Source: a virus (lineage: Duplodnaviria > Heunggongvirae > Uroviricota > Caudoviricetes). From it: 64,000 nt of DNA. The DNA lies in IMG/VR virus record IMGVR_UViG_3300045597_000172. One strand, written 5' to 3'. This document shows positions 12,990 through 44,321 of this stretch, piece by piece (the first letter of the stretch is position 1; every line of letters starts with the position of its first letter). A model generated the notes under the pieces. The model was given only the letters and a program-made list of their open reading frames with translations. It made no database searches and was not told the DNA's origin. A program made the position numbers and the translations under genes.

Positions 12990-15377
12990 ATGTTTAATTA
13001 TCAATCATTGATCAATCCTACTACCTCTGGAATATATCTAAAAGTACCAGCAAGATCACGAAAACAAGAATTTGCATTATATAAAATCACAGACGAGCCG
13101 CAAACAAATCTTGATGAACTAGAAAAAAACTTCGATTTTCGTTATCTAACACTTCAAAAGAACTCATTAACACTGGTATTAATTCCATTCGAAAACGAAA
13201 TCCGATCTGACCAATTTGAAAATCTGGAATTTGAATTTTTTAACGATAACTTCTCAAAATATACGTATGGACATTCATACCGCGACCGAAGCACTAATAT
13301 TGTACCTTTTGAACTACATCATCCTAAAAGTGATTACGTAAACGCTATGAAATTCGTACAAGATCAACAAATATATTTTGACACTGACAAAATTAAAGAA
13401 GCTTTAGCTGAATACGTTAAGACTGAAGAATTTAAAGATATTAGTATCGATGCCTTGAAAACAAGAACATTTTTGCATTCATTAGCAAACGATGTCTATA
13501 ACAGTATTTACACACAAACCGATTTGGACTTGATTTTAAGTATCTTACGACCTCATATTAAGAAAATCGGAAAAGAATATAAAACTGCATATAGTGAAAT
13601 TGATCAAAGTTCAGAACTTAGAGCAAGAACCAAGCCATTTGGACAATACCTAAAGTTATATCGAACCAACCACGGACAAGCCAAAAATATTGCACAGCAA
13701 ATGTTATCGATGATGGCAAGTGATTTTGAACCTAACCCGAAATTGGATCTCTCAATTGCTGCCGATTTAATATCTCAAATCTATCCACCTGCATTAATTG
13801 AAGGTGGTGGCCATGACCGTGATAATGTAGTAATCTTTGATCCACTTGAAGGAATCTGGATTCATAATGAAGACTTATTTTATTCGTTACTAACTGCAAT
13901 ACGTCCATATTCAAAACAAAACGAATTAACGACTATGGTTGCAACATTTGCAGCACAAGCACGTAATAAAGACTCATTTATAAAACCCTATAACCAAAGT
14001 AGATACTTGCCGTTTAAAAACGTAGTTTTAGATGTAAAAACAAAATTGACATATCCTCTCGATCACGATTTAGTCAAAAAACTACACTTTATTGAAAGAA
14101 CTCAAATAAATCTAAACTATGATCCCGAAGTTATTGCTGCCCCAGAATTTCCGGGAAAATTGAATAACCGAAATAAAAACGGAAACTTCACATGGGATCC
14201 ATGGACATTCTTTATGGCTTACGCTGATAACGATCCTAAGAAATTAAACTTCTTCATGTTTTGTCTTTCACTCGGACTATTCTCAGGACACAATTTCGGT
14301 GTTCATGTCAATATCAAAGGTGAATCTCGTTGGGGTAAAACAATCATTAGTGAAGTATTCAAAGGACTATTCCCCGGAAAAGTCTTTACCAAAGCATTTT
14401 CAACATTAAATGAACAATTTGGATTTACCAGTTATGATCCTTCGACAAGTGTTATCTGGATCGATGAATGTAACAGCGATGCCGCACCATTAAATAACGA
14501 ATACGGTATTCAAGTATATGATTCCTTAGCAAATAACCAAGCCCATTTACAAGTTAAAAGTAAAGGAGATCTTCAACTAAATAATCCGCCACAAATGTTC
14601 ATTGATGGTACATCATTTGTAAAAGCTAAAGATATGGATACTGGTCCTGCCGGTAGAACCTTAGTTTATAAATTACCAATGGAAGATGACTCAAAAAACA
14701 GCATCACTGAATTAATCCATCAAGCCTACGCAAAAGACATTATTGAATTATTACAAGATGAAGCTGTTTTACAATTTCTAGTAAACATGATGATTGAAGC
14801 TTACCGTACCTGTCTAGGTTTGACCCCTGATAACTACGATCGATTGTGGTCGTTAAAACTCAATTTAGGTGGACATTCAAGCGATACAACATTACTTCCC
14901 GAATTTGCACGTGATTGGCGTCAAGAAATGGCCAAAACGCAAGGTGGCGACATTCAAGAATGGTTTGAATATGATTTCATGCCATACTTCTCAACTGATC
15001 CAAAAGAGCCAACAAAGATGCACAACGCATTAGCATACTTATTCTATGCCAATGATTACAAAACAAAATACAGTCGCCAAGACCCACACAACCAATTCAT
15101 GTTGGCTGAACGAAACTTTTCTAATCAATTCAAAAATCTACTTAAAGAAAACGGTTGGGAACGTTCCGAAGTACGTGAAGCAAACGGAAGAAAAACTAGA
15201 CAGTCAAACAAATATCTATCAAAACTTAATTTCGCAGAACAAGCCTATAAAGATGACGGACATCAAATTCCAATTGAATTTACAAAAGAAAACATTGATT
15301 CCGATCGTCCATTGAGTTCATATCCACTTGGTATGAAAGTAACTGGTTGGTATAAAATAATCAAAGTAAAGCAATGA
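12990..15377 (+). CDS. P-loop NTPase, putative replicative primase-associated helicase (SF3/D5-P4-like)
   Basis: Walker A IKGESRWGKTIISEVF, Walker B-like VIWIDECNSD. 795 aa. Lies upstream of an AEP-type primase candidate. aaggaggtcttcttatcac-ATG RBS. Confidence 0.45.
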   Translation: MFNYQSLINPTTSGIYLKVPARSRKQEFALYKITDEPQTNLDELEKNFDFRYLTLQKNSLTLVLIPFENEIRSDQFENLEFEFFNDNFSKYTYGHSYRDRSTNIVPFELHHPKSDYVNAMKFVQDQQIYFDTDKIKEALAEYVKTEEFKDISIDALKTRTFLHSLANDVYNSIYTQTDLDLILSILRPHIKKIGKEYKTAYSEIDQSSELRARTKPFGQYLKLYRTNHGQAKNIAQQMLSMMASDFEPNPKLDLSIAADLISQIYPPALIEGGGHDRDNVVIFDPLEGIWIHNEDLFYSLLTAIRPYSKQNELTTMVATFAAQARNKDSFIKPYNQSRYLPFKNVVLDVKTKLTYPLDHDLVKKLHFIERTQINLNYDPEVIAAPEFPGKLNNRNKNGNFTWDPWTFFMAYADNDPKKLNFFMFCLSLGLFSGHNFGVHVNIKGESRWGKTIISEVFKGLFPGKVFTKAFSTLNEQFGFTSYDPSTSVIWIDECNSDAAPLNNEYGIQVYDSLANNQAHLQVKSKGDLQLNNPPQMFIDGTSFVKAKDMDTGPAGRTLVYKLPMEDDSKNSITELIHQAYAKDIIELLQDEAVLQFLVNMMIEAYRTCLGLTPDNYDRLWSLKLNLGGHSSDTTLLPEFARDWRQEMAKTQGGDIQEWFEYDFMPYFSTDPKEPTKMHNALAYLFYANDYKTKYSRQDPHNQFMLAERNFSNQFKNLLKENGWERSEVREANGRKTRQSNKYLSKLNFAEQAYKDDGHQIPIEFTKENIDSDRPLSSYPLGMKVTGWYKIIKVKQ

Positions 15378-15418
15378 CGGTGAAAAGCCGGTGTTAGGTG
15401 CAATTCCTAACATTGCTA
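15370..15418 (+). ncRNA. mini tRNA-like element (7-bp acceptor-like stem, short hairpin, T-arm with loop UGCAAUU); function unknown
   Basis: agcaatg...cattgct 7-bp closing stem. T-arm ttagg-tgcaatt-cctaa. Overlaps the stop codon of the upstream CDS. The 11-mer ggtgcaattcc recurs at 25630. Confidence 0.3.
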
Positions 15419-15463
15419 TAGTTCTATTAATACAAATAAACATGAAAGGATTGTTAATTATCA

Positions 15464-15829
15464 ATGAAATTACATCAAAAAAGTGTAAATATTAAACTTG
15501 ATGAAAATTTATCAAACGAAGTCTTCAACTATTTACAAACTAGCCCCCTATCCGAAGCTAAAAGCTTAACAAACCTTTTGACAATTGGACTAGATGTTGT
15601 AAACGGAAAATATCATGACCGTGAACTTCACGGACTAGAAACTAGAAACGATGAAGTAATCAGAATGCTAACTGCAATTGAAACTCACCAAAAAGTATTA
15701 CAACAAGGTCTGGCAGATATTAATGATGCAGTTACCGATCAAATCAGCGATACTGATTTACTAACTGATCCAATTACAAAAACAGCAATGAAAAAAGAAG
15801 AGCTTAGAAAGGATTCTCAAAATGCATAA
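15464..15829 (+). CDS. hypothetical protein, possibly RHH-like DNA-binding N-terminus
   Basis: N-terminus KSVNIKLDENLSNEVFNYLQ...SEAKSLTNLLTIGLD has strand-helix-helix character. Weak call. Confidence 0.35.
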   Translation: MKLHQKSVNIKLDENLSNEVFNYLQTSPLSEAKSLTNLLTIGLDVVNGKYHDRELHGLETRNDEVIRMLTAIETHQKVLQQGLADINDAVTDQISDTDLLTDPITKTAMKKEELRKDSQNA

Positions 15830-15962
15830 GAACAAGAAGAAATCACAAATCAAAAAGAAATTACGTCGTATTAAAGCAAAGAATATTGCAAATCAAATAA
15901 AAATTCAAAGCCTAAAGAAGACGTCTAAATCATAATAATTATTGTAAAAAAGGAGGTATAAT

Positions 15963-17009: not shown

Positions 17010-17023
17010 AACCTTTCAGTTCT

Positions 17024-17045
17024 ACTTACATGAGGCACTAAAAGT
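17024..17045 (+). terminator. rho-independent terminator
   Basis: aggcac-taaaa-gtgcct followed by ttttt. Confidence 0.6.
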
Positions 17046-17137
17046 GCCTTTTTTCTTTATTGTTGATTAATGGTTTAAAAACCCATTAACTTACAATATT
17101 TTATTGTATATTAAAAAACCGAAAGGAGAATCCCATT

Positions 17138-17281
17138 ATGAAGAAGGTAATTCACGCAATTAAAGGAATCAGCCTACTATTAATAATTGGGCTAAGCGTG
17201 TCTACCTTCATCATGATTAGAGTTATAATAGGCTTATGGATTGTTATCCAACTATTATGGCAAGGGTTCACACTTGGCTAA
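17138..17281 (+). CDS. small membrane protein (47 aa)
   Basis: Not in the ORF track. RBS gaaaggagaatcccatt-ATG. Hydrophobic sequence ISLLLIIGLSVSTFIMIRVIIGLWIVIQLLW. Confidence 0.4.
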   Translation: MKKVIHAIKGISLLLIIGLSVSTFIMIRVIIGLWIVIQLLWQGFTLG

Positions 17282-17391
17282 TAAACGACCGGTAAGTCGA
17301 TAAAAACTGCCAACTAAAAAACAGTCGACCAGTCAAGTCGTTAAATACCGACACAAAACTATAATACAAAAACTAAAGGAGGAGTCTAATT

Positions 17392-18078
17392 ATGGCTCTA
17401 CAAAAACGTCCATCTCTTTATGATTTCGTAAACCCCGGTGATCGGGTAGTATTAAAAGGTATCTTAGCATATTCATCTCTTCGTGAAAAGCGCAAGCCAA
17501 AGATTCAAAGCAAGTTTAATAACGATCCTCGTTATACTATCACAATCATTGATCCTGAAATTGTTAATGGTGCAGATACTGAACTTGGAAAGAACATTGT
17601 GCGTAAAGATGTCTCACATGGTTTCTATGATAGCAAAGCTGGCAAGTATGCTGGACACACTGCTTGGACTTTCGACTCGACTTCACTGTTTGCCCCAGCA
17701 ATTTACACCAAAGAAACTGGTAGCGACCATGTTCCAGCAAATGACTTCTTAGAAAAGGAATTGGGTGCTGGACAAGAAGTTGAAGTATTGTTCTCAATCT
17801 ATCACAACAACAAACGTGATATTAACAGTGGTCAACTTGACGGTGTCGTAATTGCTTCACCAGAAAACATTCAGTATTACGGTAGTGGTACCGATTATAC
17901 AGATATGCTGGGTAAGCCAAAGGGTACTTTACAAAAGTACGTTGACGAACGAAAAGCTGAACAAGGTGAAACTAATGTGGAAGATACTACTGAACCACAA
18001 AACGAACCTGCTGAAGAAAAGAAAGACGATGCAAAAGTCCAAAAGAAGGCCGAACAATTATTCGGTGATGACGACTAG
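17392..18078 (+). CDS. abundant small protein with an acidic C-terminal tail; possible ssDNA-binding (SSB-like) protein
   Basis: Very strong RBS ctaaaggaggagtctaatt-ATG. Host-like, higher-GC codon usage. C-terminal EEKKDDAKVQKKAEQLFGDDD tail reminiscent of SSB and T7 gp2.5 tails. Followed by a strong terminator. Function is inferred only. Confidence 0.35.
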   Translation: MALQKRPSLYDFVNPGDRVVLKGILAYSSLREKRKPKIQSKFNNDPRYTITIIDPEIVNGADTELGKNIVRKDVSHGFYDSKAGKYAGHTAWTFDSTSLFAPAIYTKETGSDHVPANDFLEKELGAGQEVEVLFSIYHNNKRDINSGQLDGVVIASPENIQYYGSGTDYTDMLGKPKGTLQKYVDERKAEQGETNVEDTTEPQNEPAEEKKDDAKVQKKAEQLFGDDD

Positions 18079-18093
18079 TCATTAGTTGTCACA

Positions 18094-18160
18094 AAGCATG
18101 ATTCAAAATAGTTTGCTGTTTCTATTGGTGAATCAGACGGTTCAAGTCCGTCCATGCTTA
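18094..18160 (+). ncRNA. degenerate tRNA-like element (acceptor-like stem plus canonical T-arm, no clear D or anticodon arms)
   Basis: aagcatg...catgctt 7-bp stem. T-arm gacgg-ttcaagt-ccgtc. Located between the CDS stop and the terminator. Confidence 0.3.
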
Positions 18161-18165
18161 TACAA

Positions 18166-18189
18166 CGCACCAGTTGGTGCGTTTTTTTT
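18166..18189 (+). terminator. rho-independent terminator
   Basis: cgcacc-agtt-ggtgcg followed by tttttttt. Confidence 0.7.
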
Positions 18190-18240
18190 ATTATGTAAAT
18201 TAAAAATTAAAAAAAAATACTAAAGAAAGGAACACCACTT

Positions 18241-27736: not shown

Positions 27737-28012
27737 ATCTCAGTACGAGGCGCAAAGATTGACGCTAAAAACAAAGAAATTTGTTATATCTGATAACCGA
27801 TTGTGAATTGGTTCAACACCAATACAGAAGTTGGAGCTTAGAATCGGTTAACTTATAAAGTTTGAATCCTTATCGTACTATTTCATGCGTGCATTAACTT
27901 GCCAACCATAATTGGTTGCCGTCGCATAGAACTGCACCGACGTCAGTACAGCGTCGTAAAATAAATTAAGCAACACTCCTACAAGGAAATATTGTGCAGG
28001 TATTTCCATAAT

Positions 28013-28084: not shown

Positions 28085-28303
28085 TAGATGCTACTAAACA
28101 AAGGCATTGCGCTAATTGCGAAAACCAAATAACATTGTTTACTAACGGTGTAACTAAGCTGGGCTAAATGCATCAAAACGATGCATAAATTATGAGATAT
28201 AAATTAAACGCTGGATTGCAACCAGTTGCTCATAATACCAATATTAAAAATGGTACCATTCTTAATATTAGTAGTTAGGTTCGATTCCTAAACGCTGTTA
28301 TTT

Positions 28304-28369
28304 CGTGATTGTAGCTCAAGACAAGAGTCATCGTTGTGACGAGATATTGGTGCAAATCCAATCAATCAC
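28304..28369 (+). ncRNA. degenerate tRNA-like element (66 nt) with T-loop UGCAAAU
   Basis: Acceptor gtgattg/caatcac (7/7). D-arm-like gctc-aagacaa-gagt. T-arm attgg-tgcaaat-ccaat. Anticodon arm truncated. Confidence 0.3.
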
Positions 28370-28405
28370 ATCATAAAATTCAAAATTGGAAAGGAAGATG
28401 TAAAA

Positions 28406-28669
28406 ATGGAATACCGAGTACCCGTTGCATATGGCTCATACGGAATTGTAAAAGTTAATGCTAAAAACAAGCAAGAACTAATCGAAAAATTATCATCTCA
28501 AGAGTTTATTGCTGAAATGCCATTACCTGACAATCCTGAATATCTCGATGACTCATTCGAAATCGATGTAGATGGTTTAGAATTTGAAGAACAACACGAC
28601 AAAAACGGAAACGCTGTCACCCTAGCATTATCTCATAACGAAATTAAAAAAATAAGAAATCCAGAATAA
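28406..28669 (+). CDS. hypothetical protein
   Basis: RBS ggaaaggaagatgtaaaa-ATG. 87 aa. Confidence 0.4.
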   Translation: MEYRVPVAYGSYGIVKVNAKNKQELIEKLSSQEFIAEMPLPDNPEYLDDSFEIDVDGLEFEEQHDKNGNAVTLALSHNEIKKIRNPE

Positions 28670-29138
28670 AACATTGTCCGCAACGACAATCAGCATTCAT
28701 TAAACTACGTGGTGGAGATGGCGTAGAGTAAAACTCACGTCCAAGAAAAAATACAACATGCTTACATAATGTTGTTGTAAAACAGATATTAAACAAAAAA
28801 TAAATTCAAAGGATGTGATGATCGTGCATAGAAGCCGTTTGCTTCACCGTCCGCGCGACGTTATGATTGAAAATATCAATTCATAAAAAAACAATGCTGC
28901 ATATACTATAAAACATAATTGGTGCGTGGGAAGTTGAAATACTTCTATATCGTTAGTTGCTAAAACCGGCTAATGACGAATTAGAATAGGCAAGTTCCGT
29001 TAAATGTACGCCAACCTAGATCTATGTACGTAAAAGCATAATTGATCGCATAGGAAAGACAGCCAATTTAACTTAAAAAGTCAGCACTAGACAAAAAGCC
29101 GTATCGAAGAACGCGTAATGACGTAATCATTACAAAAG

Positions 29139-29766: not shown

Positions 29767-30092
29767 GGGCTTGTTTTGGATTCGACAGGGCATTAACGCT
29801 TTAATCTCGTCAACCAGTTAAATATAACTGCAAAAGAAAACACTTTAGTTGCTGCCTAGTTTAACCACTAAATAGCAACACCTCAACCCACTGGCAAAGC
29901 CGTGATAACCAGTGGTTTCAAACACGGATAAGTTAATTATGTTCCATTAACATAATTAATCGAAAACTAAAATGGTTAATGAATGTTTGTCATTAGCAAA
30001 ACTCATTATAAAAAAAATAATTAATGACTATGACGTAAGAATGATTACGGTAAGTGATGTCTTGGACGCGGGTTCGATCCCCGCCAAGTCCA
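29767..30092 (+). ncRNA. ssrA: tmRNA (SsrA), about 326 nt, predicted tag (A)AKENTLVAA
   Basis: 5' end GGGCUUGUUUUGGAUUCGACAGGG (tmRNA hallmark GGAUUCGACAGGG). 3' tRNA-like domain gcggg-ttcgatc-cccgc plus acceptor caagtcc pairing with 5' gggcttg, including a G3-U70 wobble (Ala identity element). Conserved UUAAAUAUAACU precedes resume codon GCA at 29830. Frame GCA AAA GAA AAC ACT TTA GTT GCT GCC TAG ends at 29859. Confidence 0.7.
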
Positions 30093-30284
30093 TAAATCAA
30101 AAAAAAATCGTCAAAAATATCTTGACCAAACTTATATGTTAACATATAAGAGTAGTAGGACCGCATACGCGGGATCCTGAGTACAACTTAGTCTAAAGAT
30201 ACCAAGTTGGAATCAAGCAGAGTCAGCTGCTAAGTCAGACAATTTGAACTACTAATTTTACGATATTTATTAATATCGTATTTC

Positions 30285-30363
30285 GGACTCGAAATCAACA
30301 ACCCTAGGAACGTTGATTCCATGAATAGCTGTTAGCCAGATGGTTTGAATCCATCCGAGTCCA
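30285..30363 (+). ncRNA. degenerate tRNA-like element (79 nt)
   Basis: Acceptor ggactcg/cgagtcc (7/7). T-arm gatgg-tttgaat-ccatc. Middle has a tcaac/gttga hairpin with a 12-nt loop but no anticodon arm. Confidence 0.3.
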
Positions 30364-30394: not shown

Positions 30395-30955
30395 ATGATG
30401 ACCGATAACATTAAAAAGATTCCACAAATTCCATTGTTACACGATATTCCCTTCAATCAAGAAGACAAAGATCTAATCGTTCAACTATCATTACAAGGTG
30501 TAATTGCATCACTCCACAATGACCCAAAATACGGTTTGTTTTTATCAATCAAGAAACCTATTCGCGGCATGTTGTCAGTACAAATTCTCATCGAAAAAGC
30601 AACTCATGGAAATCTCAAAAAAAGTATTCTTGATAGTTGCAAAAATGCACCTGAACAATTATCAAAAATGCGAGATGTGAAATATTTGGATAGTTTAATT
30701 AATAACATCGAAAACTTCCATTTCATTCGCAAATATGACGAACCTTATTTTAAAGAAAACATTCAGCCATTACTAAACAATCACGCTGAGACAGAAAAAA
30801 TAGATAATAAAATTAATCAATACGAATCTGACACTGGCAAAAAAATTGATCTTACCAAACCTGATTTTCAAAAACGTTTAAACGAAATCCGAAAGATACA
30901 ACGACGAAAAATTCATTTTCAATGTAATCTTATTCGCATTGCTAACAGTATCTAA
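30395..30955 (+). CDS. hypothetical protein
   Basis: RBS aagaaagctggaaat-ATG. 186 aa. Confidence 0.45.
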   Translation: MMTDNIKKIPQIPLLHDIPFNQEDKDLIVQLSLQGVIASLHNDPKYGLFLSIKKPIRGMLSVQILIEKATHGNLKKSILDSCKNAPEQLSKMRDVKYLDSLINNIENFHFIRKYDEPYFKENIQPLLNNHAETEKIDNKINQYESDTGKKIDLTKPDFQKRLNEIRKIQRRKIHFQCNLIRIANSI

Positions 30956-31227: not shown

Positions 31228-31242
31228 TCCAAATATCTTAAA

Positions 31243-32812: not shown

Positions 32813-32821
32813 TCAAACAAA

Positions 32822-36000: not shown

Positions 36001-37334
36001 AAAAACTAGCAACACTAACAGTTAACGGTACAACTCAAGATGTACAAAGCAGTTTATCAACTAGCAACAAAGAAATTTTAACAAACGTAAATAGTTCAAA
36101 AACTGCTAATAATTCAGATCCAACATTTGATATTAACCTAAAAAGTAATCAAACAAACAGCAGTCAAAATCCAGTTGTTTTAACAAAGAGTCTTATTAAA
36201 GATCAAAGTAACAACAACTCCATTTCAAAAACAACTTACGTTTCAAACGATGATCTTTACACTAGCAAAAACACTGCTGCTCAATACAAAAAAGAAAACA
36301 CCTCAAGTACTGTTGGATCCGCACCTGAAGAAGTTGAAACTTATTACGACCAAGATTTAACAAATCCACAAACAGAAACGACTAACGAAACCTCTCCTAC
36401 TTACGTCAAACTCATGGAATACATGAACGCAAACTATAGTAAGACGGTTAGTGCAAAAGCTGGTTATGGTATTAAAAATGATTTGATTTTAAACTACTAT
36501 GGCCGTCATTTAACAAATCAGTCAACTTCTGATACTGATTTTGAAAAAAATAATCTTGCAACGATCTTTAGTACGGATACGGATTTAACCACTGCCAACG
36601 GAAAAACTTCAAGTCAAATTAACGATAATCAACATGAATTACTTGATTATAATGCCGAAGTCAATTCCGTTAACGACTTAATCAACAATGTCAACAATCT
36701 AACTACGAATGCACAAAAGACAAATTATCTTCAATCGAAACTCGGTACAAACGCCGGAAATTCATTTGTCTATAATCTAGCCGGAAAAGAAAACACACTT
36801 GATCAAGCCGTATCAGACATCAACAAGTCAACTGCCTATGTTAACCTTGATGATAAGACAAAATCATTCATCAATACCGTTGACACCGACACAAATTCAA
36901 AACCGATTGCGCCAAAACTATATAGTATGAATTACCGTTTCAACAAACGACTATTATCATACGAAAATAGTAACAGTAACGGTGTTGAATATTATGACCG
37001 AAACAGTTCACATGTAGCTCAAAACGATGACCAACTAATGAATAAAACCGATCCAATCAGTAGCACAACTGATGGCGGATACAAATTTTATACCAACCAA
37101 TGGTTAAAAATTGGAACATATCCGACACACTACACAAGTAACGAATTTGGAACTAACAATTTCAAATTAAAAGCTGATCGCGATCTAAACATTTATGGCC
37201 GACGTTATCTAACACGTTCTGATACTAAAAATGATGGAGATAAATATGATGACCTATCAATTCAACCTGTCATTTCGAAAAATAGTAACGGAACCGGAAC
37301 TACTATGCCTGACGGTGAATGGAGTAATAAATAA
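33063..37334 (+). CDS. large secreted adhesin-like protein with four MucBP-like repeats (1423 aa); possible phage receptor-binding/adhesion protein or host-surface adhesin
   Basis: Signal peptide MNKKIIAKKVSITILITILGLTNMSDVFLL. Four alternating repeats of about 70 aa between roughly nt 34380 and 35290: TV(K/T)VKYVD..GN.L.......GYYGL.Y and ...NY.T......GWHL...PTN..GT......V.YIYDRDPE. Asn/Thr/Ser-rich. No LPXTG at the C-terminus. Confidence 0.65.
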   Translation: MNKKIIAKKVSITILITILGLTNMSDVFLLKNNIIHADPTNWTQTANNVNATNKNLIDNAVTNSKKTENTNLIQDQTQTIDATSSNLNDIENQVKNSNNNMISEINSDTEKQKAINEKNEQIEKDNNSKKQSYEAALTNYNNELAAYKKNLQDQGLNDGIDPSTFNQQLQFTQDDRNNTEPKVSVQLLSGAVNYKKLISNGYGTSNFPWSNSHEAEQIYAKNSNAKSINGDFAKITWDGVYGYSYNGIQIKKIVETFSDWKLAATKHVSGPRGITVYQNPNENFWYLNGSDTTTNYQFYDENGNLINFEPNNAYVAVGSLDRAYYAYDFGSHTYNTNIVANQIEEVQLLSAGTGIQLTNSTISNHDGNNMFSDKDNVQIQYQNGGLTEYGAFNVTGGNIKLHYHTNMTNEAPNASTLTSFATIFPLSSAPKKPTSPTYTPTDPTVTDIHYHYTNINLKLTVTTNYLQNNDSKKQEDGSKLADSTTQSGDSNSNYSTSKKDFTGWHLTSTPTNASGTLTNYDVTVNYIYDRDPETVKVKYVDEETGNDISNPTTLNGYYGLSYTSSPKSITGWTLSKTPNNTSGTYSKSNADIIYQYKRNTETVTANYLANNDINKNEFGQKLADSVTQKGGFGTNYTTSAKDILGWHLLGIPTNQNGTYQESNPDVNYIYDRDPETVTVKYVDTKGNTLAKSNTLIGYYGLDYQTYPASIDNYHLTAIPTNATGKYSNGPITVTYIYDVDPDIKEGLSNDAINSKNYDTAISNTSQNVQYNNVYHYVDKITVGGSMNLTDLKIQTNLPSDVNPIVNGGDINNQNIKVYVREDDGSLTNVTSQGTLAYQVNNKDVTSDNNKNVAIDTDKTRTLTWTPKTPSAFTGKQIITDIPVNLQPDAAKLKSYKSDNGINIKHTTQLIESNDLPSSGEIKTDTTSQKTYTSNNTTIQLPNIYTLKFYKSEFQTNDTINGKVWLKLYPNLVGQEDTGNKKLATLTVNGTTQDVQSSLSTSNKEILTNVNSSKTANNSDPTFDINLKSNQTNSSQNPVVLTKSLIKDQSNNNSISKTTYVSNDDLYTSKNTAAQYKKENTSSTVGSAPEEVETYYDQDLTNPQTETTNETSPTYVKLMEYMNANYSKTVSAKAGYGIKNDLILNYYGRHLTNQSTSDTDFEKNNLATIFSTDTDLTTANGKTSSQINDNQHELLDYNAEVNSVNDLINNVNNLTTNAQKTNYLQSKLGTNAGNSFVYNLAGKENTLDQAVSDINKSTAYVNLDDKTKSFINTVDTDTNSKPIAPKLYSMNYRFNKRLLSYENSNSNGVEYYDRNSSHVAQNDDQLMNKTDPISSTTDGGYKFYTNQWLKIGTYPTHYTSNEFGTNNFKLKADRDLNIYGRRYLTRSDTKNDGDKYDDLSIQPVISKNSNGTGTTMPDGEWSNK

Positions 37335-37340
37335 CACAAA

Positions 37341-37370
37341 AAACCCGCATTTAACGATGCGGGTTTTTTT
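37341..37370 (+). terminator. rho-independent terminator
   Basis: cccgcat-ttaacg-atgcggg followed by ttttttt. Confidence 0.7.
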
Positions 37371-37515
37371 ATAACTATATAAAAAAAATATGCACAATTT
37401 AATCAAATACCATTGCATTTGTGAAATTTATAAGATAAAATAAAGTTCGTAAGTAATGTGTGCACACACCATATCGTTACATACATCATTCCAAAATAAA
37501 GGAAGTGTTTCAAAT

Positions 37516-37698: not shown

Positions 37699-37797
37699 TA
37701 GCAATAATACAAGTCGATAACGCCGGGAAGATTGAAAAATCGACCCGGTTTTCTTTTTAAAATAAGTAGTAACTCTACAATGTAAGGATGTGAATAC

Positions 37798-38244: not shown

Positions 38245-38260
38245 TAAAAAAGGTGAACTT

Positions 38261-40515: not shown

Positions 40516-40532
40516 GAAAGGAGCACACTTAA

Positions 40533-41387
40533 ATGTTTAACAAACAAAAATCAAAAAACACTACTGAAAAAAAGAGAACAACCAACGTTACCGCGGAAGA
40601 CTTTGATGTTCAAACCATGCGATTAAATCTTGTTCGTGAAGAATTAACATTTCCAGCCAGTTTAATTGGTGATGGCGAACTAAGACTCATGCTCAAAATG
40701 GATACTAAAACACGAGTAATCAAAGGTATCATGGGTAACAGATTCCGTGTCGCAATCGCGGCCGTACTATTTGGACTAATTTTTGGAATGATTTCCAAGA
40801 AGTATTTTATTTTAATGTTGTTCCTAGGAATTTTGATAGCTGCCGTTTCGTGGAATGATAGTATTAAAAAAACAAAAAAATACTACCAAATCTATTCGAT
40901 AAATCGTCAAGTTGCATTTACTGAATTTACTAAAATTGCCGGCGCACTTCTTCCTGAATTAGATAACGGAAAAAACCTCCTATCAATCTTTGAAGAAGTC
41001 AGCAAACATATGGACAATGAAAACGATCGTAAAGCATTGAAACAGTTAATGACACACATGCAGAGTAATAACGAAAGCAGTCAGCCATTTCTTGATTTCG
41101 CCCATCAATTTTCCACCAGTGACCGTGCAGAACTAACCATGCTATACATGCACCAAATGTACCTTGGAAACACGGATACAAGCGGAATCCAATCACTGAT
41201 CAACGATTCAAACGAAGATTACCAAGCACAAACTGAAAAAATAATTACGACCAAAATAAAAAGATTTTACAGCACCGCTACAAAGATCGCAATGAGTGTT
41301 TCAATCGTCGTTTTCGGATATTTCGGCATTTACATTGTCAACATGTTCCAGCACATCTTTAAAATCATGTCCAACGTTAAATTCTAA
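40533..41387 (+). CDS. second TadB/TadC-like membrane platform protein
   Basis: 284 aa with the same TM/cytoplasmic/TM architecture (VAIAAVLFGLIFGMI, ILMLFLGILIAAVSW, IAMSVSIVVFGYFGIYIV). RBS gaaaggagcacactta-ATG. Confidence 0.5.
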   Translation: MFNKQKSKNTTEKKRTTNVTAEDFDVQTMRLNLVREELTFPASLIGDGELRLMLKMDTKTRVIKGIMGNRFRVAIAAVLFGLIFGMISKKYFILMLFLGILIAAVSWNDSIKKTKKYYQIYSINRQVAFTEFTKIAGALLPELDNGKNLLSIFEEVSKHMDNENDRKALKQLMTHMQSNNESSQPFLDFAHQFSTSDRAELTMLYMHQMYLGNTDTSGIQSLINDSNEDYQAQTEKIITTKIKRFYSTATKIAMSVSIVVFGYFGIYIVNMFQHIFKIMSNVKF

Positions 41388-41407
41388 AATAACCGAGGTG
41401 AATAATT

Positions 41408-41776
41408 ATGGACGACGTCAGTATTGGACAACTCATGCATTACCTAACGCTTGGATTATGGATTAGCCTCATTCTATTCATTCTTTGTTATCCAATGTAT
41501 TCAGTTGCACAATTAGTATCATTTCAACAATCATCAGCAACAATTCTATCACGATACGGTGGCGTAACCGCCGATGCCAAAAAAACAGTTAATACCATTG
41601 GGGAAACATATTACAGTAATAAATTCAGTATCGTAGATACCCCAAGCGACAAAACAAGCAATTACGGAGGAAACATTCCATACACAATTCATGTAAGAAT
41701 CCCCGTAATCAGTAACTTAGTCGAAACAAATATCCAAGCCAACACTGAATCAGACGTACGTAACGAAAACAATTAA
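41408..41776 (+). CDS. N-terminally anchored small protein (122 aa); pseudopilin-like, paralog of 41962..42336
   Basis: N-terminal TM helix LTLGLWISLILFILCYPMY. Shares a C-terminal motif Y-[TI]-I-x-V-[RH]-IP-[VL]-I with the 41962 product. Confidence 0.4.
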   Translation: MDDVSIGQLMHYLTLGLWISLILFILCYPMYSVAQLVSFQQSSATILSRYGGVTADAKKTVNTIGETYYSNKFSIVDTPSDKTSNYGGNIPYTIHVRIPVISNLVETNIQANTESDVRNENN

Positions 41777-41796
41777 AAAAAGAAAGATGTGATCAT

Positions 41797-41946
41797 ATGA
41801 AACGCGGTTTTTCAGAATTAGTATTCACAGTTCCCGGAGCGGCATTTATCGCAATGATAATCATTATAATCGCGGCATTTATTTCTCCCAATATGCTTCA
41901 AACAATGTGGTTACTTCTCGTGAATAACAATGGAATCACATTCTAA
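41797..41946 (+). CDS. 49-aa prepilin-like mini-protein (class III signal-like KRGF/SE motif)
   Basis: Not in the ORF track. MKRGFSELVFTVPGAAFIAMIIIIIAAFISPNML. The K-R-G-F-S-E pattern resembles the (K/R)G-F-T-L-[IV]-E prepilin peptidase site, followed by a hydrophobic helix. Confidence 0.4.
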   Translation: MKRGFSELVFTVPGAAFIAMIIIIIAAFISPNMLQTMWLLLVNNNGITF

Positions 41947-41961
41947 GGCGGTGATTAAATA

Positions 41962-42336
41962 ATGGCCCATTTTCCATTTGAAGAACTAATTCGTTGGTTA
42001 TTCATGAGTCTATGTATTGCGTTTTTTATAAATATTTGTGCAATCAGTTTTAACGTAATGCAAATCAATAACTACGAAAAAAATATCGACAATTACATTG
42101 AGAACAACGGAAAACTAGACAGTGCATATATTAACAACAATATTTCACCCAAATTCAACAATTATTTTACCGTAAAGCCCAAATCTACAAACGATGAACA
42201 ACCTCACGACTTTGGTAAAAGTGTTGATTACATCATAACTGTTCATATCCCGCTCATTGCATTTGCAAGCAAAAATGAATCACTTGGAATCAACACCACA
42301 TATTCTGGTTTCAGTACTTCAAAAATTTCAAACTAA
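41962..42336 (+). CDS. N-terminally anchored small protein (124 aa); pseudopilin-like paralog
   Basis: N-terminal TM helix LIRWLFMSLCIAFFINICAISF. C-terminal YIITVHIPLIAF motif shared with 41408. Confidence 0.4.
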   Translation: MAHFPFEELIRWLFMSLCIAFFINICAISFNVMQINNYEKNIDNYIENNGKLDSAYINNNISPKFNNYFTVKPKSTNDEQPHDFGKSVDYIITVHIPLIAFASKNESLGINTTYSGFSTSKISN

Positions 42337-42337
42337 A

Positions 42338-42359
42338 AGACACCTCGGTGTCTTTTTTA
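42338..42359 (+). terminator. rho-independent terminator
   Basis: agacac-ctcg-gtgtct followed by tttttt. Confidence 0.65.
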
Positions 42360-42400
42360 TTAACCCTTAAAATATAACGACCCGTTTATATTCCAAATAA

Positions 42401-42422
42401 AAGCGCCAAAGGCGCTTTTTTT
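42401..42422 (+). terminator. rho-independent terminator, GGCGCC-stem family variant
   Basis: aagcgcc-aaa-ggcgctt followed by ttttttt. Confidence 0.6.
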
Positions 42423-42460
42423 ATAAAACGTTCGTACAAAAAATCAAAGGAAGCGATAAT

Positions 42461-42652
42461 TTGAAAAACGTGTACATCCTAACAAATCATGAAACTGTAA
42501 AAAATTACGTTAAATCATTCAATCCACAAAATGGTTATATGAAATTCACAACAGAAAAACAACTCGCTGCAAAGGTGCAACCCCAAAATGCCCTTAAAAT
42601 CAAGGCAATGTTAGATCATAACAAATTGCATGCCACAATCGCACCTGCATAA
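42461..42652 (+). CDS. hypothetical protein (TTG start)
   Basis: aaggaag RBS. 63 aa. Confidence 0.3.
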   Translation: MKNVYILTNHETVKNYVKSFNPQNGYMKFTTEKQLAAKVQPQNALKIKAMLDHNKLHATIAPA

Positions 42653-42667
42653 AAAGGACTTGACTAT

Positions 42668-43027
42668 ATGAAATCAAAAATAAATCTTATAATTTCAGAA
42701 ACACCTGTTAACGATAAACGTTTCCCAAATTCAAGCATTATTGACACCAATTTCGTAGACAATCTTCACGACAACATTAGAATCTACCGTGTAAATAATA
42801 CCTTTACAGACGATGGTTATTTCAATGATGAATTATCCACCACTACACTTTCTAAATCTGAGCAATCGAAAATCATTGATCTTGCAACATCCCTATTTGG
42901 ATGTGAATTCAATGGAACCGAAATAACATGTACCACAACTGATTATGACAATGGACTCGCAAGAATCATTCAATGCTGTACTACTATCACTGCATTAACA
43001 ACATACACACTCGCAAAGGAGAATTAA
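42668..43027 (+). CDS. hypothetical protein
   Basis: ORF of 119 aa with several Cys. Confidence 0.35.
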   Translation: MKSKINLIISETPVNDKRFPNSSIIDTNFVDNLHDNIRIYRVNNTFTDDGYFNDELSTTTLSKSEQSKIIDLATSLFGCEFNGTEITCTTTDYDNGLARIIQCCTTITALTTYTLAKEN

Positions 43028-43030
43028 AAA

Positions 43031-43426
43031 ATGTCAATTTCATCTAACTTAAATCGTGATTCAAAAACTCGTGATCAAATAATCTTTGGCCAAGACGTAA
43101 CTAATACTTCATACGATATAAAGAACTTCGAAAATCTCTCGTTGAGTAAACTAAAAGAATTATTCAATAAAAACTTTATTGCAGACGGAGATTACCAAAA
43201 CGATTCTCCCACCGCAAAAGAATTTTTAGATTTTCTCAAAGAAAACCCCAACTTTACCGCAAATGGATATGTCGTATCAATAAAACGTGCCGATTATCGT
43301 ACAACCATAACCGGTGTAAACCACGACAAAACACCACTATCCAACGAAGAACTAATCAATTTTAGTAATATGTTTCATGACGCTGACGAATTCGATATCC
43401 AGAAAGGATATGCTTGGTATGATTAA
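43031..43426 (+). CDS. hypothetical protein
   Basis: ORF of 131 aa, translationally coupled to the next gene. Confidence 0.35.
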   Translation: MSISSNLNRDSKTRDQIIFGQDVTNTSYDIKNFENLSLSKLKELFNKNFIADGDYQNDSPTAKEFLDFLKENPNFTANGYVVSIKRADYRTTITGVNHDKTPLSNEELINFSNMFHDADEFDIQKGYAWYD

Positions 43427-43640
43427 CAATTCAGATGAACAAAAACTGTTAATAGAAAAAAGAGACAAACTTATTAAAGAACGAGATCAGTTAATTAACA
43501 ACATAAAAGATCAAGAAAGGAAAATGCAAAATGTCAACCATCAAATAAGAACTGCAAAGATAAAAATAGCAGTTGGATGCTTATTACTATTAGCATTAAT
43601 AATGGTAAACATATTTGCATTAGTAGAATTAAATAAATAA
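43419..43640 (+). CDS. coiled-coil protein with C-terminal TM anchor (73 aa)
   Basis: ATGA overlap with the upstream stop. agaaagga RBS. KIKIAVGCLLLLALIMVNIFALV C-terminal TM helix. Track start 43377 is rejected. Confidence 0.35.
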   Translation: MINNSDEQKLLIEKRDKLIKERDQLINNIKDQERKMQNVNHQIRTAKIKIAVGCLLLLALIMVNIFALVELNK

Positions 43641-43641
43641 T

Positions 43642-43887
43642 ATGACTAATAAAAACCAACCTCATAATTCAACTTGCCCATACTGTACTTTCGACATGCA
43701 TAAGACAGTCTTTGGATTGCATCTCGCAAAATCAATCGGTAACGGATTGGGATTAGCAGCATCATACGACGGATCTGATTGTAACATCTTATTAGTACAT
43801 ACCGAAGATGAAAACCAGACAGTCAGTTGCAGTGGTAATAACGTAAAACTTAAAGCTTGCCCAGTCTGTCAACGAAAATTCAAATAA
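43642..43887 (+). CDS. zinc-ribbon protein, paralog of 57663..57959
   Basis: CPYCTFD...CPVCQRKF. Shares CPYC.FD......G..LA...GN..GLA with the 57663 product. Confidence 0.4.
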   Translation: MTNKNQPHNSTCPYCTFDMHKTVFGLHLAKSIGNGLGLAASYDGSDCNILLVHTEDENQTVSCSGNNVKLKACPVCQRKFK

Positions 43888-43906
43888 CAAACGAAAGGAC
43901 TATACA

Positions 43907-44260
43907 ATGTATAAACCAATCAGTCAAACTAAAAAGTTAATCACCATTGTAAATTCGGCGGATACAAGAGTAACCAAAAAAATATTTTCCAAATCTCAAT
44001 TTTTAAAATCACTTCAATCAAATAAATCCATTCAAACATTATATGATATGGATGACATTACAGACTTAACTAATGAAGCAATACAAGCATCAGATACCAT
44101 TGGTGATGGCAAAATTAAAAACCACAACGATCTTATCCAACATGCAGAAAAATGTTTCAATAAAAACGAATCACTAACAATCTTATATTTAGAGGAAGGC
44201 GCCGCAATCATCATCATTGTTGACACCTTAAATCTAAACGATTACGAAGATTGCGAATAA
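43907..44260 (+). CDS. hypothetical protein
   Basis: ORF of 117 aa with gaaaggactatacA-ATG RBS. Confidence 0.35.
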   Translation: MYKPISQTKKLITIVNSADTRVTKKIFSKSQFLKSLQSNKSIQTLYDMDDITDLTNEAIQASDTIGDGKIKNHNDLIQHAEKCFNKNESLTILYLEEGAAIIIIVDTLNLNDYEDCE

Positions 44261-44271
44261 GAAAAAACGTC

Positions 44272-44321
44272 TACCGAGTATTCTCTTGGATATTATTTCG
44301 GTTCGAATCCGAACTCGGTAA
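44272..44321 (+). ncRNA. mini tRNA-like element (50 nt: acceptor-like stem plus canonical T-arm)
   Basis: taccgag...ctcggta 7-bp stem. T-arm ttcgg-ttcgaat-ccgaa. Only 18 nt in between. Confidence 0.3.

Follow-up and report, generated by a model that had tools for sequence, protein, structure and literature searches.

The question raised by this locus is what RNA elements that resemble the upper half of a tRNA, and that cannot decode, are doing behind protein genes. The window (the whole stretch of 64,000 nucleotides that was analyzed) represents a large uncharacterized mobile element of lactic-acid-type bacteria and has no match in INPHARED, PLSDB, GTDB genomes, or IMG/VR. Its gene content, including LPXTG and MucBP adhesins, a T2SSE-family ATPase, RadC, and an Alp7A-like actin, looks more like that of a conjugative megaplasmid than that of a phage. 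Several tRNA-biology genes are carried (18 tRNAs, a tmRNA, and RtcB), and tRNA content varies strongly among relatives, L008 having few tRNAs and L006 another set. The original prediction of a tRNA-like family was real and understated: the sequence points to about 12 reduced tRNA look-alikes, non-decoding and composed of an acceptor stem, an elbow, and a T-arm with no anticodon, most of them located just past stop codons and kept through compensatory changes.

A family of tRNA-like elements without an anticodon loop

The elements were sought with a descriptor that requires a 7-bp closing stem and, immediately next to its 3′ strand, a T-arm of 5 bp and a 7-nt loop. Outside tRNAs, the + strand contains 9, 10, and 12 matches at spans of 60, 100, and 160, whereas 0.31, 0.46, and 0.70 are expected from 200 dinucleotide shuffles (maxima 2–4). 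The − strand contains 4–5 matches, which are AT-rich and have non-canonical loops. When strict T-loops are required, 23 matches (including tRNAs) are found on the + strand versus one on the − strand. Perfect T-arm motifs number 30 on the + strand (12 outside tRNA and tmRNA genes) versus six on the − strand, and 2.9 ± 1.6 in shuffles. All elements have the same orientation as their flanking genes, and they occupy only a minority of intergenic gaps. They form a tRNA-derived or tRNA-mimicking family that keeps the acceptor stem and T-arm without a decoding anticodon loop (Table 1).

Table 1. Positions of the tRNA-like elements in the window (z, folding z-score; MFE, minimum free energy structure).
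Position	Strand	Class	Detected by	z	Remarks
3882..3925	+	mini	descriptor	−2.7	43 nt plus discriminator; single-sequence MFE takes an alternative 5′ strand
11094..11145	+	mini	descriptor	−2.95	MFE equals the model
15370..15418	+	mini	descriptor	−2.5	T-loop TGCAATT
18094..18160	+	midi, 66 nt	original list	−3.1
22540..22611	+	cloverleaf-like RNA	ARAGORN ("tRNA-???")	−4.9
24110..24173	+	midi, tRNA island	descriptor	−0.8	folding energy not distinctive
25973..26058	+	tRNA-like gene (island midi)	Rfam tRNA, 42.2 bits (cut-off 29)	−1.4
27742..27879	+	possible maxi, 137 nt		−3.4	weak candidate
28145..28299	+	maxi, 154 nt, multibranched	descriptor	−3.7	0/200 shuffles fold equally well
28305..28370	+	midi	descriptor	−1.2
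30285..30363	+	midi, 78 nt	descriptor	−3.1	T-loop TTTGAAT
44272..44321	+	mini	descriptor; covariance model R1	−2.3

The eight loci listed originally are as described, with a perfect 7-bp stem abutting a 5-bp stem and a 7-nt T-type loop. Seven are clean (15370, 18094, 24110, 25973, 28305, 30285, and 44272), and the one called possible (27742–27878) stays only possible, having a T-stem mismatch. The list was sound but incomplete, as the elements at 3882, 11094, 22540, and 28145 had been missed, the first two lying outside its range. It had also been stated that no anticodon arm can fold; an anticodon loop is indeed absent, but the 25973 element folds a 14-bp hairpin with a TGAG tetraloop in that place, so that "no anticodon loop" is the better wording. 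The recurrence of the 11-mer GGTGCAATTCC at 15397 and 25631 was confirmed, the second copy being without an intact T-stem. An Rfam scan gave no tmRNA or Y-RNA match for the elements.

The set is not uniform. Gene-end minis, which are well supported as a class, are distinct from the midis of the tRNA island (24110, 25973, and 28305). Five minis are situated far outside the island, directly 3′ of protein-gene stops. The 5′ edge of the gene-end minis falls between 8 nt before and 48 nt after the upstream stop, mostly 1–15 nt after it. The shortest version is a bare minihelix of 31 nt in the relative L004, and other minis are 40–44 nt long.

The 3882 element begins 1 nt past the stop of a MoxR-type AAA gene (2513–3880) and consists of AGCAAAA, the linker GCTGGTGCAAAT, the T-arm AAGGG-TTCGATT-CCCTT, and TTTTGCT, followed by A|TT. 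The 11094 element begins 6 nt past the stop of a UvrD-like helicase gene (8040–11087); a 7-bp acceptor stem encloses a D-like hairpin (loop ...CTTGG) and the T-arm GTTGG-TTCAAAT-CCAAT, and the 3′ strand is again followed by A|TT. The same three-helix architecture, with a linker ...CTCTTGG..., is found at 44272, 11 nt past the stop of ORF 43907–44260. Both of these elements occupy the expected terminator position directly 5′ of promoter-like sites, at 11146–11174 in the former case and TTGCAA-N17-TATTAT, followed by a tRNA-Pro/Ala/Trp cluster, in the latter. As originally noted, the 15370 element overlaps a coding sequence: its 5′ acceptor strand includes the TGA (15375–15377) of ORF 12990–15377, which encodes a primase/helicase-like protein of 795 aa. 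The 18094 element, which has an acceptor stem, a long middle arm that is interrupted and ends in a U-rich 10-nt loop, the T-arm GACGG-TTCAAGT-CCGTC, and no D-arm, is situated between ORF 17392–18078 (stop at 18078) and the intrinsic terminator that had been predicted, located at 18164–18183. This ORF, called SSB-like in the original prediction, encodes 228 aa with only an acidic ...LFGDDD tail and no Pfam, PHROG, or PDB match.

The remaining elements are more heterogeneous. At 24110, the acceptor strand ACAACTG, a D-like arm (AGCT-AATGGAA-AACT), and the T-arm ATCGG-TTCGATC-CCGGT surround a truncated arm of 3–4 bp with a 6-nt loop. The 25973 element has acceptor, D-, and T-arms and is not called by ARAGORN. 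At 28305, a D-like arm and a 4-bp arm capped by a tetraloop lie between the acceptor strand GTGATTG and the T-arm ATTGG-TGCAAAT-CCAAT, and the start codon at 28406 follows 36 nt past the 3′ end. The folds of these three midis are weak (z −0.8 to −1.4), and the comparative evidence covers other elements only; they may be decaying tRNA genes. The 28145 element ends 5 nt upstream of the 28305 element; its closing stem, ACGGTGT/ACGCTGT, contains two G-U pairs, and the perfect T-arm TTAGG-TTCGATT-CCTAA abuts the 3′ strand. The 27742 candidate begins 5 nt past the stop of ORF 27380–27736 and is closed by a 7-bp stem. It contains a terminal T-like arm with one mismatch (TAAAG-TTTGAAT-CCTTA), an internal perfect T-arm at 27807, and A rather than T after the discriminator; it is not in the syntenic region of L008. 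The tmRNA gene lies about 190 nt 5′ of the 30285 element, and ORF 30395–30955 begins 32 nt past it. The 22540 element, located 3′ of an LPXTG gene and its terminator, has a 6-nt "anticodon" loop (ARAGORN anticodon "ca"), a non-canonical T-like loop, and no Rfam call.

Three signatures outside the search criteria appear to mark the elements as tRNA-like in identity rather than as generic hairpins. No CCA is encoded and T directly follows the discriminator in 27 of 28 elements, against a T frequency of 0.265; the real tRNAs behave in the same way (14/14 with ends read), as does the tmRNA. In Lactobacillales, RNase Z matures CCA-less tRNAs by cutting directly 3′ of the discriminator (PMC8549757). 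The pair G53-C61 is invariant, and a linker GG is present in all 10 elements with a TTCRA T-loop (null expectation 2.9/10). Every copy has a 7-nt T-loop, which begins with T and has A as its fifth nucleotide with a single exception. In the post-UvrD orthologs, the last nucleotide of the hairpin-1 loop and the third of the T-loop, read by eye, covary as the 19:56 pair of the tRNA elbow does: four orthologs have G-C, two C-G, and one G-U. At position −1, minis mostly have A and real tRNAs mostly T, so RNase P recognition may differ or be absent.

Conservation and covariation among relatives

The original prediction passed its check for conservation and covariation in related genomes: elements at equivalent gene ends recur in metagenomic relatives whose neighboring proteins are 42–97% identical, and the syntenic orthologs keep their helices through many compensatory changes. 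For covariation, element boundaries were picked by eye at syntenic intergenic regions, ortholog alignments were analyzed with RNAalifold, and pairing was compared with 500 shuffles. The post-UvrD (11094) element is found in all seven relatives examined, with compensatory changes in 14 of 16 pairs and 92.7% of alignment cells paired, versus 70.5% in shuffles (none of the 500 as high) and 22–46% in slid controls. The post-MoxR (3882) element has orthologs 3′ of the same gene in L002, L003, L006, L007, and L014, with compensatory changes in 10 of 12 pairs and 98.3% of cells paired versus 69.8% in shuffles (again 0/500 as high). The G-U pairs in the stems are compatible with the + strand only. The comparative data thus suggest that the RNA structure of the gene-end elements is under selection.

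Other elements are kept less uniformly. The post-primase (15370) element is present in L002, where the T-stem TTAGG/CCTAA has become TCAGG/CCTGA, and in L004, with acceptor AGCAATA/TATTGCT, T-loop TGCAAAT, and the position after the stop. It is dispensable, given its absence from four of seven relatives (L003, L006, L007, and L014). Syntenic post-"SSB" (18094) elements occur in L002, L006, and L007, and the middle-arm loop CTTTGTTAT(G/T)TTCTT is kept; at the same position, L004 has a bare 12-bp minihelix with the loop TTCGACT (15025–15056). The post-MoxR and post-"SSB" elements track the upstream gene where the downstream gene differs. The ortholog of the 30285 element (L008 4601–4690, also in L009) keeps all 17 pairs, including the compensatory changes U-A to C-G in the acceptor stem and A-U to U-A in the T-stem, while its middle part is divergent and differs in length.

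Covariance model R1, trained solely on the post-UvrD orthologs with the 11094 element as seed, finds the paralogous 44272 mini at 31.7 bits (E = 1.4e-4). Its other paralogous matches have E values of 0.003–0.09, among them the L004 post-primase copy (0.003) and the 18094 element (0.09). Distant post-UvrD orthologs have non-canonical T-loops (TTGAAGC, TCTAAGC, and TTCATGA), which makes strict recognition by tRNA enzymes harder to defend.

Possible roles of the gene-end elements

In the favored reading, to which we give about an even chance, the elements are cis-acting mimics of the tRNA "top half" and would form mRNA ends by recruiting RNase Z, RNase P, and the CCA-adding enzyme. The modules would be transcribed within + strand mRNAs and fold with the 7-bp acceptor stacked on the 5-bp T-stem and the 7-nt T-loop closed by G53-C61, and the linker or small hairpin would supply the D-loop GG that docks with the T-loop to form the elbow. 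This top half is the part of a tRNA read by the three enzymes. The transcript would then probably be cleaved at the module by host tRNA-maturation enzymes: RNase Z would separate the unpaired discriminator from the conserved U that comes next, and RNase P might, though not necessarily, act at the 5′ edge a few nucleotides past the upstream stop. The product would be a small CCA-tailed tRNA-like RNA, released or left on as a 3′ cap. The sequence data show the structure, strand, and position of the elements, their excess over chance, their conservation with covariation, and the tRNA-like 3′ signature; from these we infer the enzyme recognition, the cleavage by RNase Z and RNase P, the CCA addition, and any effect on expression. 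At 15370, where the element overlaps the stop, an RNase P cut would leave a non-stop mRNA.

Overall, the original interpretation is partly supported. "Processing punctuation" fits the position just 3′ of stops, but the elements are not a general punctuation system, as only a minority of gene junctions carry one. Decoys for anticodon nucleases are implausible, since the elements lack precisely what these enzymes cleave, the anticodon loop. As for priming or packaging signals, nothing was found pointing that way. In broader terms, a DNA-level role would have hairpins form in single-stranded DNA while the element is replicated or transferred by conjugation, where they would be priming sites or work as single-strand promoters; alternatively, the tRNA-like sequences would be attachment or target sites for integrases or other mobile elements. 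The region does resemble a plasmid replication or leading region (primase-like, acidic-tail SSB-like, RadC, and UvrD genes), and in L004 an IscB-like gene (RRXRR and HNH) with a long upstream non-coding region is inserted just 3′ of the post-"SSB" minihelix. We nevertheless find this role hardly credible: the conserved features (T-loop U54/A58, G53-C61, the GG elbow partner, and an unpaired discriminator followed by U) belong to the tRNA fold and are meaningful to RNA-binding enzymes, both acceptor strands are present, in contrast to tRNA fragments left by integration (PMC9897764), the neighborhood contains no integrase, and the constant sense orientation also argues against it.

Functionless tRNA pseudogenes, decaying through turnover of the island, would account for the 24110, 25973, and 28305 elements, whose D-arms accompany truncated or replaced anticodon arms and indistinct folding energies, for the isolated T-loop 11-mer at 25631, and for the differing tRNA content of relatives. 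As an explanation of the whole family this is very unlikely, and several observations already contradict it for the gene-end minis: the retention of 12 stacked pairs via many double substitutions at 42–66% protein identity, the divergence of linkers and flanks while stems persist, unlike in neutral decay, the location of the five minis far from the island, and the retained T after the discriminator and linker GG. It is also conceivable, although unlikely, that the functional product is not the cut, but a released, stable, CCA-tailed RNA acting in trans. Such an RNA might be a sponge for proteins that bind the acceptor stem, T-arm, elbow, or CCA end (toxins that modify or cleave tRNA 3′ ends, CCA-adding or modification enzymes, or EF-Tu-independent tRNA users), or a regulator via conserved loops. 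The 15-nt post-"SSB" loop is conserved across relatives though stems differ, and this element lies just 5′ of a terminator, like a 3′-UTR-derived sRNA; the larger island RNAs (22540, 25973, and 28145) have no adjacent ORF end, and the mobile element invests in tRNA biology. On the other hand, the T-loop and GG are the only conserved single-stranded sequence in the shortest versions, close linkage to upstream stops is unnecessary for a trans-acting RNA, and no partner protein has been identified.

Comparison with known tRNA-like systems

The conjugative megaplasmid pMP7017 of Bifidobacterium breve carries a transcribed tRNA array and its own tmRNA beside replication genes, and is thus a comparator for the host element, although no mini tRNA-like elements have been reported for it (PMC10832533) and it has no sequence similarity to the window. 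The tRNA-like domains of tmRNA and of the Y RNA YrlA (PMC4201824) likewise combine an acceptor stem, a T-arm, and a D-loop analog without an anticodon arm. The elements here have neither the G3:U70 pair, tag reading frame, and pseudoknots of tmRNA nor the Ro60-binding stem of YrlA, and no TROVE gene was identified. Phage T4 encodes stable RNAs C and D (species 1 and 2), which are 120–140 nt long, lie inside the tRNA cluster, and are not known to flank protein genes. Like the 22540, 25973, and 28145 RNAs, they are non-decoding stable RNAs among mobile-element tRNA genes.

Acceptor-T-arm minihelices are laboratory model substrates of RNase P, RNase Z, and the CCA-adding enzyme. They share with the elements the 12-bp coaxial helix, T-loop, and single-stranded 3′ discriminator, and the L004 minihelix is exactly of this type; unlike these constructs, the elements are natural, conserved, and embedded in mRNAs. 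In animal-mitochondrial tRNA punctuation and in MALAT1/mascRNA, a tRNA shape is the cis signal by which RNase P and RNase Z split a long precursor. The mitochondrial signals are functional tRNAs and mascRNA is a eukaryotic nuclear cloverleaf, whereas the elements here are non-decoding and found at some junctions only.

Together with animal-mitochondrial punctuation, the t-elements of plant mitochondria, first described in wheat mtDNA, offer the closest working analogy. They carry the motif GGTTCRANYCC and direct RNase P and RNase Z cuts that form mRNA 5′ and 3′ ends; some lie inside reading frames, and CCA-type additions occur on the released RNA (Forner et al., 2007; PMC1920247). These t-elements are organellar, unrelated in sequence and origin, and mostly imperfect cloverleaves of about 70 nt whose cleavage has been demonstrated, whereas the elements here belong to a bacterial mobile element, are often only 31–52 nt (acceptor, GG linker, and T-arm), and are proposed to be cleaved. 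Both are non-decoding tRNA-like structures with a conserved T-arm and an acceptor-like stem that adjoin or enter the ends of protein genes, the in-frame t-elements being comparable to the element at 15370.

Distribution of the modules in the window

Miniature tRNA-like modules of RNA form a real family in the window, one that is conserved and in part new; its structure and the selection on it are demonstrated, its function being inferred. The original prediction listed eight loci, and at every one of them a 7-bp closing stem was found whose 3' strand directly adjoins a T-type arm (5-bp stem, 7-nt loop), with the candidate at 27742-27879 remaining doubtful; its closing stem forms but its T-stem is mismatched. 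The short gene-end elements (minis) often consist of an acceptor stem, a GG linker and a T-arm, and larger elements (midis) lie in the tRNA-rich island. Some members had escaped the original list (see the table).

Both strands were scanned with a descriptor of this arrangement. On the + strand outside annotated tRNAs, 9, 10 and 12 distinct matches were obtained at spans of up to 60, 100 and 160 nt, respectively, against means of 0.31, 0.46 and 0.70 (maxima 2-4) in 200 dinucleotide shuffles. The minus strand gave 4-5 matches, which are AT-rich and have non-canonical loops. When strict T-loops were required, 23 matches fell on the + strand and 1 on the minus strand. Perfect T-arm motifs numbered 30 on the + strand (12 outside tRNA and tmRNA), 6 on the minus strand and 2.9 +/- 1.6 in the shuffles. 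Because the descriptor yields about 0.3 false positives per 64 kb, chance is an unlikely source of the elements. A relaxed descriptor, with one mismatch allowed per stem, was too noisy for use.

Coordinates of the tRNA-like elements and neighbouring features (window unless a relative is named)
Feature	Coordinates	Strand	Remarks
Post-MoxR mini	3882-3925	+	Absent from original prediction; descriptor match; starts 1 nt after MoxR stop
Post-UvrD mini	11094-11145	+	Absent from original prediction; descriptor match; starts 6 nt after UvrD stop
Sigma-70-like promoter	11146-11174		TTGCTA-N17-TATACT
Post-primase mini	15370-15418		Overlaps upstream stop codon
Post-'SSB' element	18094-18160		3' of 228-aa acidic-tail gene
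Terminator	18164-18183		Separate from the 18094 element
Cloverleaf with 6-nt loop	22540-22611	+	Absent from original prediction; ARAGORN 'tRNA-???'; z -4.9
Midi	24110
tRNA-Asn/tRNA-Ser spacer	25515-25778		MFE -75 kcal/mol over 264 nt
Midi	25973-26058		Rfam tRNA score 42.2 bits, above threshold
Doubtful candidate	27742-27879
154-nt multibranched RNA	28145-28299	+	Absent from original prediction; descriptor match; z -3.7
Midi	28305
Non-coding stretch	28642-28723		L008 1414-1494
tmRNA	29767-30095		Tag AKENTLVAA
Element shared with L008 and L009	30285
Rfam sub-threshold matches	37261-37403	both	Just 3' of MucBP adhesin gene
Mini	44272-44321
Sigma-70-like promoter	~44340-44372		TTGCAA-N17-TATTAT
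RtcB-type RNA ligase	56429-57646		PHROG 'tRNA splicing ligase', E 2.5e-119
IscB-like gene	L004 15011-16732; L005 6249-7970		433 aa, RRXRR + HNH

Relative to the upstream stop codon, the gene-end minis begin between 8 nt before and 48 nt after it, in most cases 1-15 nt after; spacing to the following start varies more (26-375 nt). Element-bearing gene junctions are a minority. The post-MoxR element keeps its place after MoxR with either a 171-aa ORF or a VWA-related gene downstream, and the post-'SSB' element is retained where an IscB-like gene has been inserted downstream. This insertion, just 3' of the minihelix and terminator, is found in one relative only (L004; also L005); about 400 nt of structured DNA without coding sequence, possibly an omega RNA, lie ahead of the gene. 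Promoter-like sites come immediately after the elements at 11094 and 44272, where there is no terminator, and the mini-then-promoter layout recurs in L002, L003 and L014. At these promoters the conserved T after the discriminator doubles as the first base of the -35 hexamer.

Conservation and covariation among relatives

Homologues of the 795-aa primase/helicase-like protein were found in metagenomes at identities from 97% down to about 30%, and homologous loci (L002-L007, L013, L014) were compared at syntenic gene ends, with alignment boundaries chosen by eye inside syntenic intergenic regions. Conservation and covariation in related genomes were among the things on which the original prediction hinged, and syntenic orthologues with many double substitutions were found.

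All seven closer-clade genomes have the post-UvrD element, with acceptor strands unrelated in sequence (AGCCGTA, AGCCACA, GACCCTA, AACGATG, AACGATA, AACAATA). RNAalifold, run without structure input, predicted a 7-bp acceptor, a 4-bp hairpin and a 5-bp T-stem, with double substitutions at 14 of the 16 pairs. By pair counting, 92.7% of the cells are paired; column shuffles give 70.5%, none of 500 reaching the observed value, and slid partners give 22-46%. In the post-MoxR element, conserved in six genomes, 10 of 12 pairs show compensatory changes and 98.3% of cells are paired, a value reached by none of 500 shuffles; the L004 site retains the T hairpin alone. Compensatory changes in both helices were also seen in the post-primase element (three genomes), and the element at 30285, shared with L008 and L009, shows one such change per helix, its middle part having diverged.

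The post-'SSB' element occurs in four genomes, every copy being followed by a terminator, and is reduced in L004 to a bare 12-bp minihelix, GCAGAATAGGGG-TTCGACT-CCCCTATTTTGT. The pyrimidine-rich loop of its middle arm is kept in sequence while the supporting stems vary between genomes: it reads CTTTGTTAT(G/T)TTCTT in L006 (15540-15575) and L007 (15020-15050), and TTTGCTGTTT in the window (18110-18135). A covariance model trained on the post-UvrD orthologues alone matched the window at 44272-44321 (31.7 bits, E 1.4e-4), the L004 post-primase site (E 0.003), the L014 post-MoxR site (E 0.037) and the window at 18095 (E 0.09); these are paralogous elements. No such elements were found in L013, a relative of 39% identity with a different gene order, and the trait is thus confined to the closer clade.

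Resemblance to tRNA and to known RNA classes

Several tRNA-like features lie outside what was searched for. None of the 14 tRNAs whose ends were read encodes CCA, nor does the tmRNA, and all have a T after the discriminator. The same T is found in 27 of 28 elements from the window and its relatives (background T frequency 0.265), and CCA follows the discriminator in none of the 28. The T-loop closing pair (G53-C61) is G-C in all orthologues, and the loops are of the types TTCRAnn, TGCAAnT or TTTGAAT. GG is present in the linker or hairpin loop of all 10 minis with a TTCRA loop (null 2.9 of 10; 0 of 20,000 samples reached 10), as predicted if equivalents of G18G19 dock on positions 55 and 56. 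Among post-UvrD orthologues, the nucleotide that ends the hairpin-1 loop and T-loop position 3, compared by eye, are G-C in four genomes, C-G in two (L006 and L007, loop TTGAAGC) and G-U in one, a pattern suggestive of covariation at the 19:56 tertiary pair. Taken together, the T after the discriminator, the G-C closing pair, the linker GG and the 19:56-like covariation indicate that these RNAs mimic the acceptor/T-arm/elbow half of tRNA and are more than plain hairpins.

The elements have a 7-bp acceptor stacked on a 5-bp T-stem and a 7-nt T-loop with U54/A58 and G53-C61. ARAGORN and Rfam (E up to 10) reported none of those at 3882, 11094, 15370, 18094, 24110, 28305, 30285 and 44272. A 5-bp anticodon stem with a 7-nt anticodon loop, which would make a tRNA, is lacking: the cloverleaf at 22540 has a 6-nt loop, and the element at 25973 has, where the anticodon arm would be, a 14-bp tetraloop hairpin. 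The suggestion that the elements are decoys for anticodon nucleases was set aside, as they have no anticodon loop. Affiliation to the tRNA-like domain of tmRNA was also rejected; the 3:70 pairs are C-G, G-C or A-U, the G3:U70 pair that would allow charging by alanine identity without an anticodon is absent, as are a tag reading frame and pseudoknots, and the sole Rfam tmRNA match is the true tmRNA. Bacterial Y RNA (YrlA), in which a Ro60-binding helix accompanies the tRNA-like domain and whose gene adjoins rsr (TROVE), has no Rfam match here; the ORFs that were scanned yielded no TROVE domain, a 568-aa ORF giving a weak VWA match only. Integration-site tRNA fragments, which comprise just the 3' part of a tRNA duplicated beside an integrase, do not fit, both acceptor strands being present and co-varying, with no integrase seen nearby. 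Nor are the elements intrinsic terminators: they have no U-tract, and a terminator pattern scan picked up, among them, only the T-arm at 3882, owing to its 3' strand TTTTGCT.

Other structured sequences were noted nearby. The strongly structured spacer between tRNA-Asn and tRNA-Ser has a perfect 7-bp pair, GGACCGT/ACGGTCC, at the acceptor-stem position and no T-stem. It includes the predicted second copy of the 11-mer GGTGCAATTCC, at 25631, an orphan T-loop. An 80-nt non-coding stretch (28642-28723; …GTCCGCAACGACA…TAAACTACGTGGTGGAGATGGCG…) has no Rfam match and is 77% conserved in L008, the adjacent island DNA being unalignable. The matches at 37261-37403 (Thr_leader 37.8 bits, Leu_leader, STnc370) most likely reflect a bidirectional terminator hairpin and no leader.

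Host element and possible function

The window has a G+C content of 34%, and its + strand carries nearly every gene. ARAGORN finds 18 tRNA genes and the tmRNA; the tRNA genes lie mostly in the island (22.5-31.2 kb), with three others at 44.4-44.6 kb. The tmRNA tag of L008 (3657-3998), an 82%-identity relative, is AKRNTLVAA. Co-occurrence of RtcB with the tRNA island and tmRNA points to a capacity for tRNA repair. Other recognised genes encode an Alp7A/MreB-like actin, a MoxR-type AAA ATPase followed by a protein with a weak VWA match, a ClpB-like ATPase, a UvrD-like helicase, a non-specific endonuclease, the 795-aa protein, YdjM, an LPXTG surface protein, RadC, flotillin, a MucBP adhesin, a T2SSE-family ATPase with membrane partners, an SNF2 helicase, RNase H, UDG and a clamp loader. 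No phage structural genes were seen among the window's genes. This absence, together with the LPXTG and MucBP adhesins, the T2SSE-family ATPase with its membrane partners, RadC and the Alp7A-like actin, points to an element probably nearer to a conjugative megaplasmid, such as pMP7017, than to a phage. pMP7017 also has a tRNA array and tmRNA (PMC10832533).

DNA and protein searches of INPHARED, PLSDB, GTDB genomes and IMG/VR gave no close relatives, and the sole matches in curated collections are tRNA-Asn-sized, to Lactobacillus phages, whose tRNA-Asn that of the window resembles. The family is known from Logan, ENA and JGI assemblies only. An identical flotillin copy lies on a 236,971-bp JGI contig and the nearest flotillins are from Ligilactobacillus; flotillin P0067 was dropped as a route to relatives, being a chromosomal host gene. 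The mobile element is bacterial and of Lactobacillales type.

An acceptor/T-arm minihelix suffices as a substrate for RNase P, RNase Z and the CCA-adding enzyme. CCA after the discriminator is an anti-determinant for RNase Z, and the elements have the features of its CCA-less substrates, namely an acceptor/T-arm helix, an unpaired discriminator and no CCA. For RNase P, the usual favourable context is U-1 and G+1; the helix and elbow mimic are present, and the minis mostly have A at -1 and +1 versus T and G in the real tRNAs. We infer, as the best-supported reading, that the modules may be cis signals for RNase Z, RNase P and the CCA-adding enzyme. RNase Z would cut at N73|U74, and RNase P may act at the 5' edge, where the A at -1 is unlike the T of real tRNAs. 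Lactobacillales tRNA genes lack CCA and RNase Z cleaves right 3' of the discriminator (PMC8549757); t-elements, tRNA-like folds with GGTTCRANYCC, steer such cuts at plant-mitochondrial mRNA ends, including inside reading frames (PMC1920247).

Cutting at both edges would excise the module as punctuation, and a 3' cut alone would leave the upstream mRNA capped by a tRNA-like structure with a CCA tail; the same data are compatible with a variant in which the functional product is the released small RNA. For the gene-end minis, simple tRNA-gene decay is contradicted; it is possible for the island midis at 24110, 25973 and 28305, which have folding z-scores of -0.8 to -1.4 and no orthologues. A role at the DNA level is unlikely, since what is conserved belongs to the tertiary fold of tRNA. 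Returning to processing, a wider scenario may be offered tentatively, and could well prove wrong: a lineage of very large bacterial mobile elements (the source contig is 237 kb) might have evolved a mitochondria-like way of making mRNA ends, in which 31-52-nt tRNA top halves after selected stops, sometimes at expected terminator sites, undergo cleavage by the host's RNase Z and RNase P and receive a CCA tail. Processing at an element overlapping a stop, of which there is at least one, would yield a non-stop mRNA that the tmRNA encoded on the mobile element could deal with, and released minis may also sponge defence toxins that target tRNA ends.

If RNase Z or RNase P cuts the modules, a bacterial mobile element would borrow host tRNA-maturation machinery for mRNA shaping. 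The modules would then be a natural set of minimal substrates for both enzymes (31-52 nt, tertiary covariation included) and compact parts for transcript-end engineering in Gram-positive bacteria, and would account for sequences that annotation pipelines miss or miscall as odd tRNAs. A further outcome of the analysis is an uncharacterised family of large, metagenome-only elements with tRNA arrays, tmRNA and RtcB. tRNA-shaped processing signals are textbook knowledge for mitochondria and a few eukaryotic long non-coding RNAs; to our knowledge, they are not recognised in bacterial plasmids or phages as a design feature that is conserved and repeated. The elements share with t-elements a non-canonical tRNA-like fold with GGTTCRANYCC, a likeness of analogy and not of membership, as t-elements are organellar whereas these lie in a Lactobacillales-type bacterial mobile element. 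By that analogy, the modules would be t-element-like or minihelix signals in a new setting, that of uncharacterised very large bacterial mobile elements.
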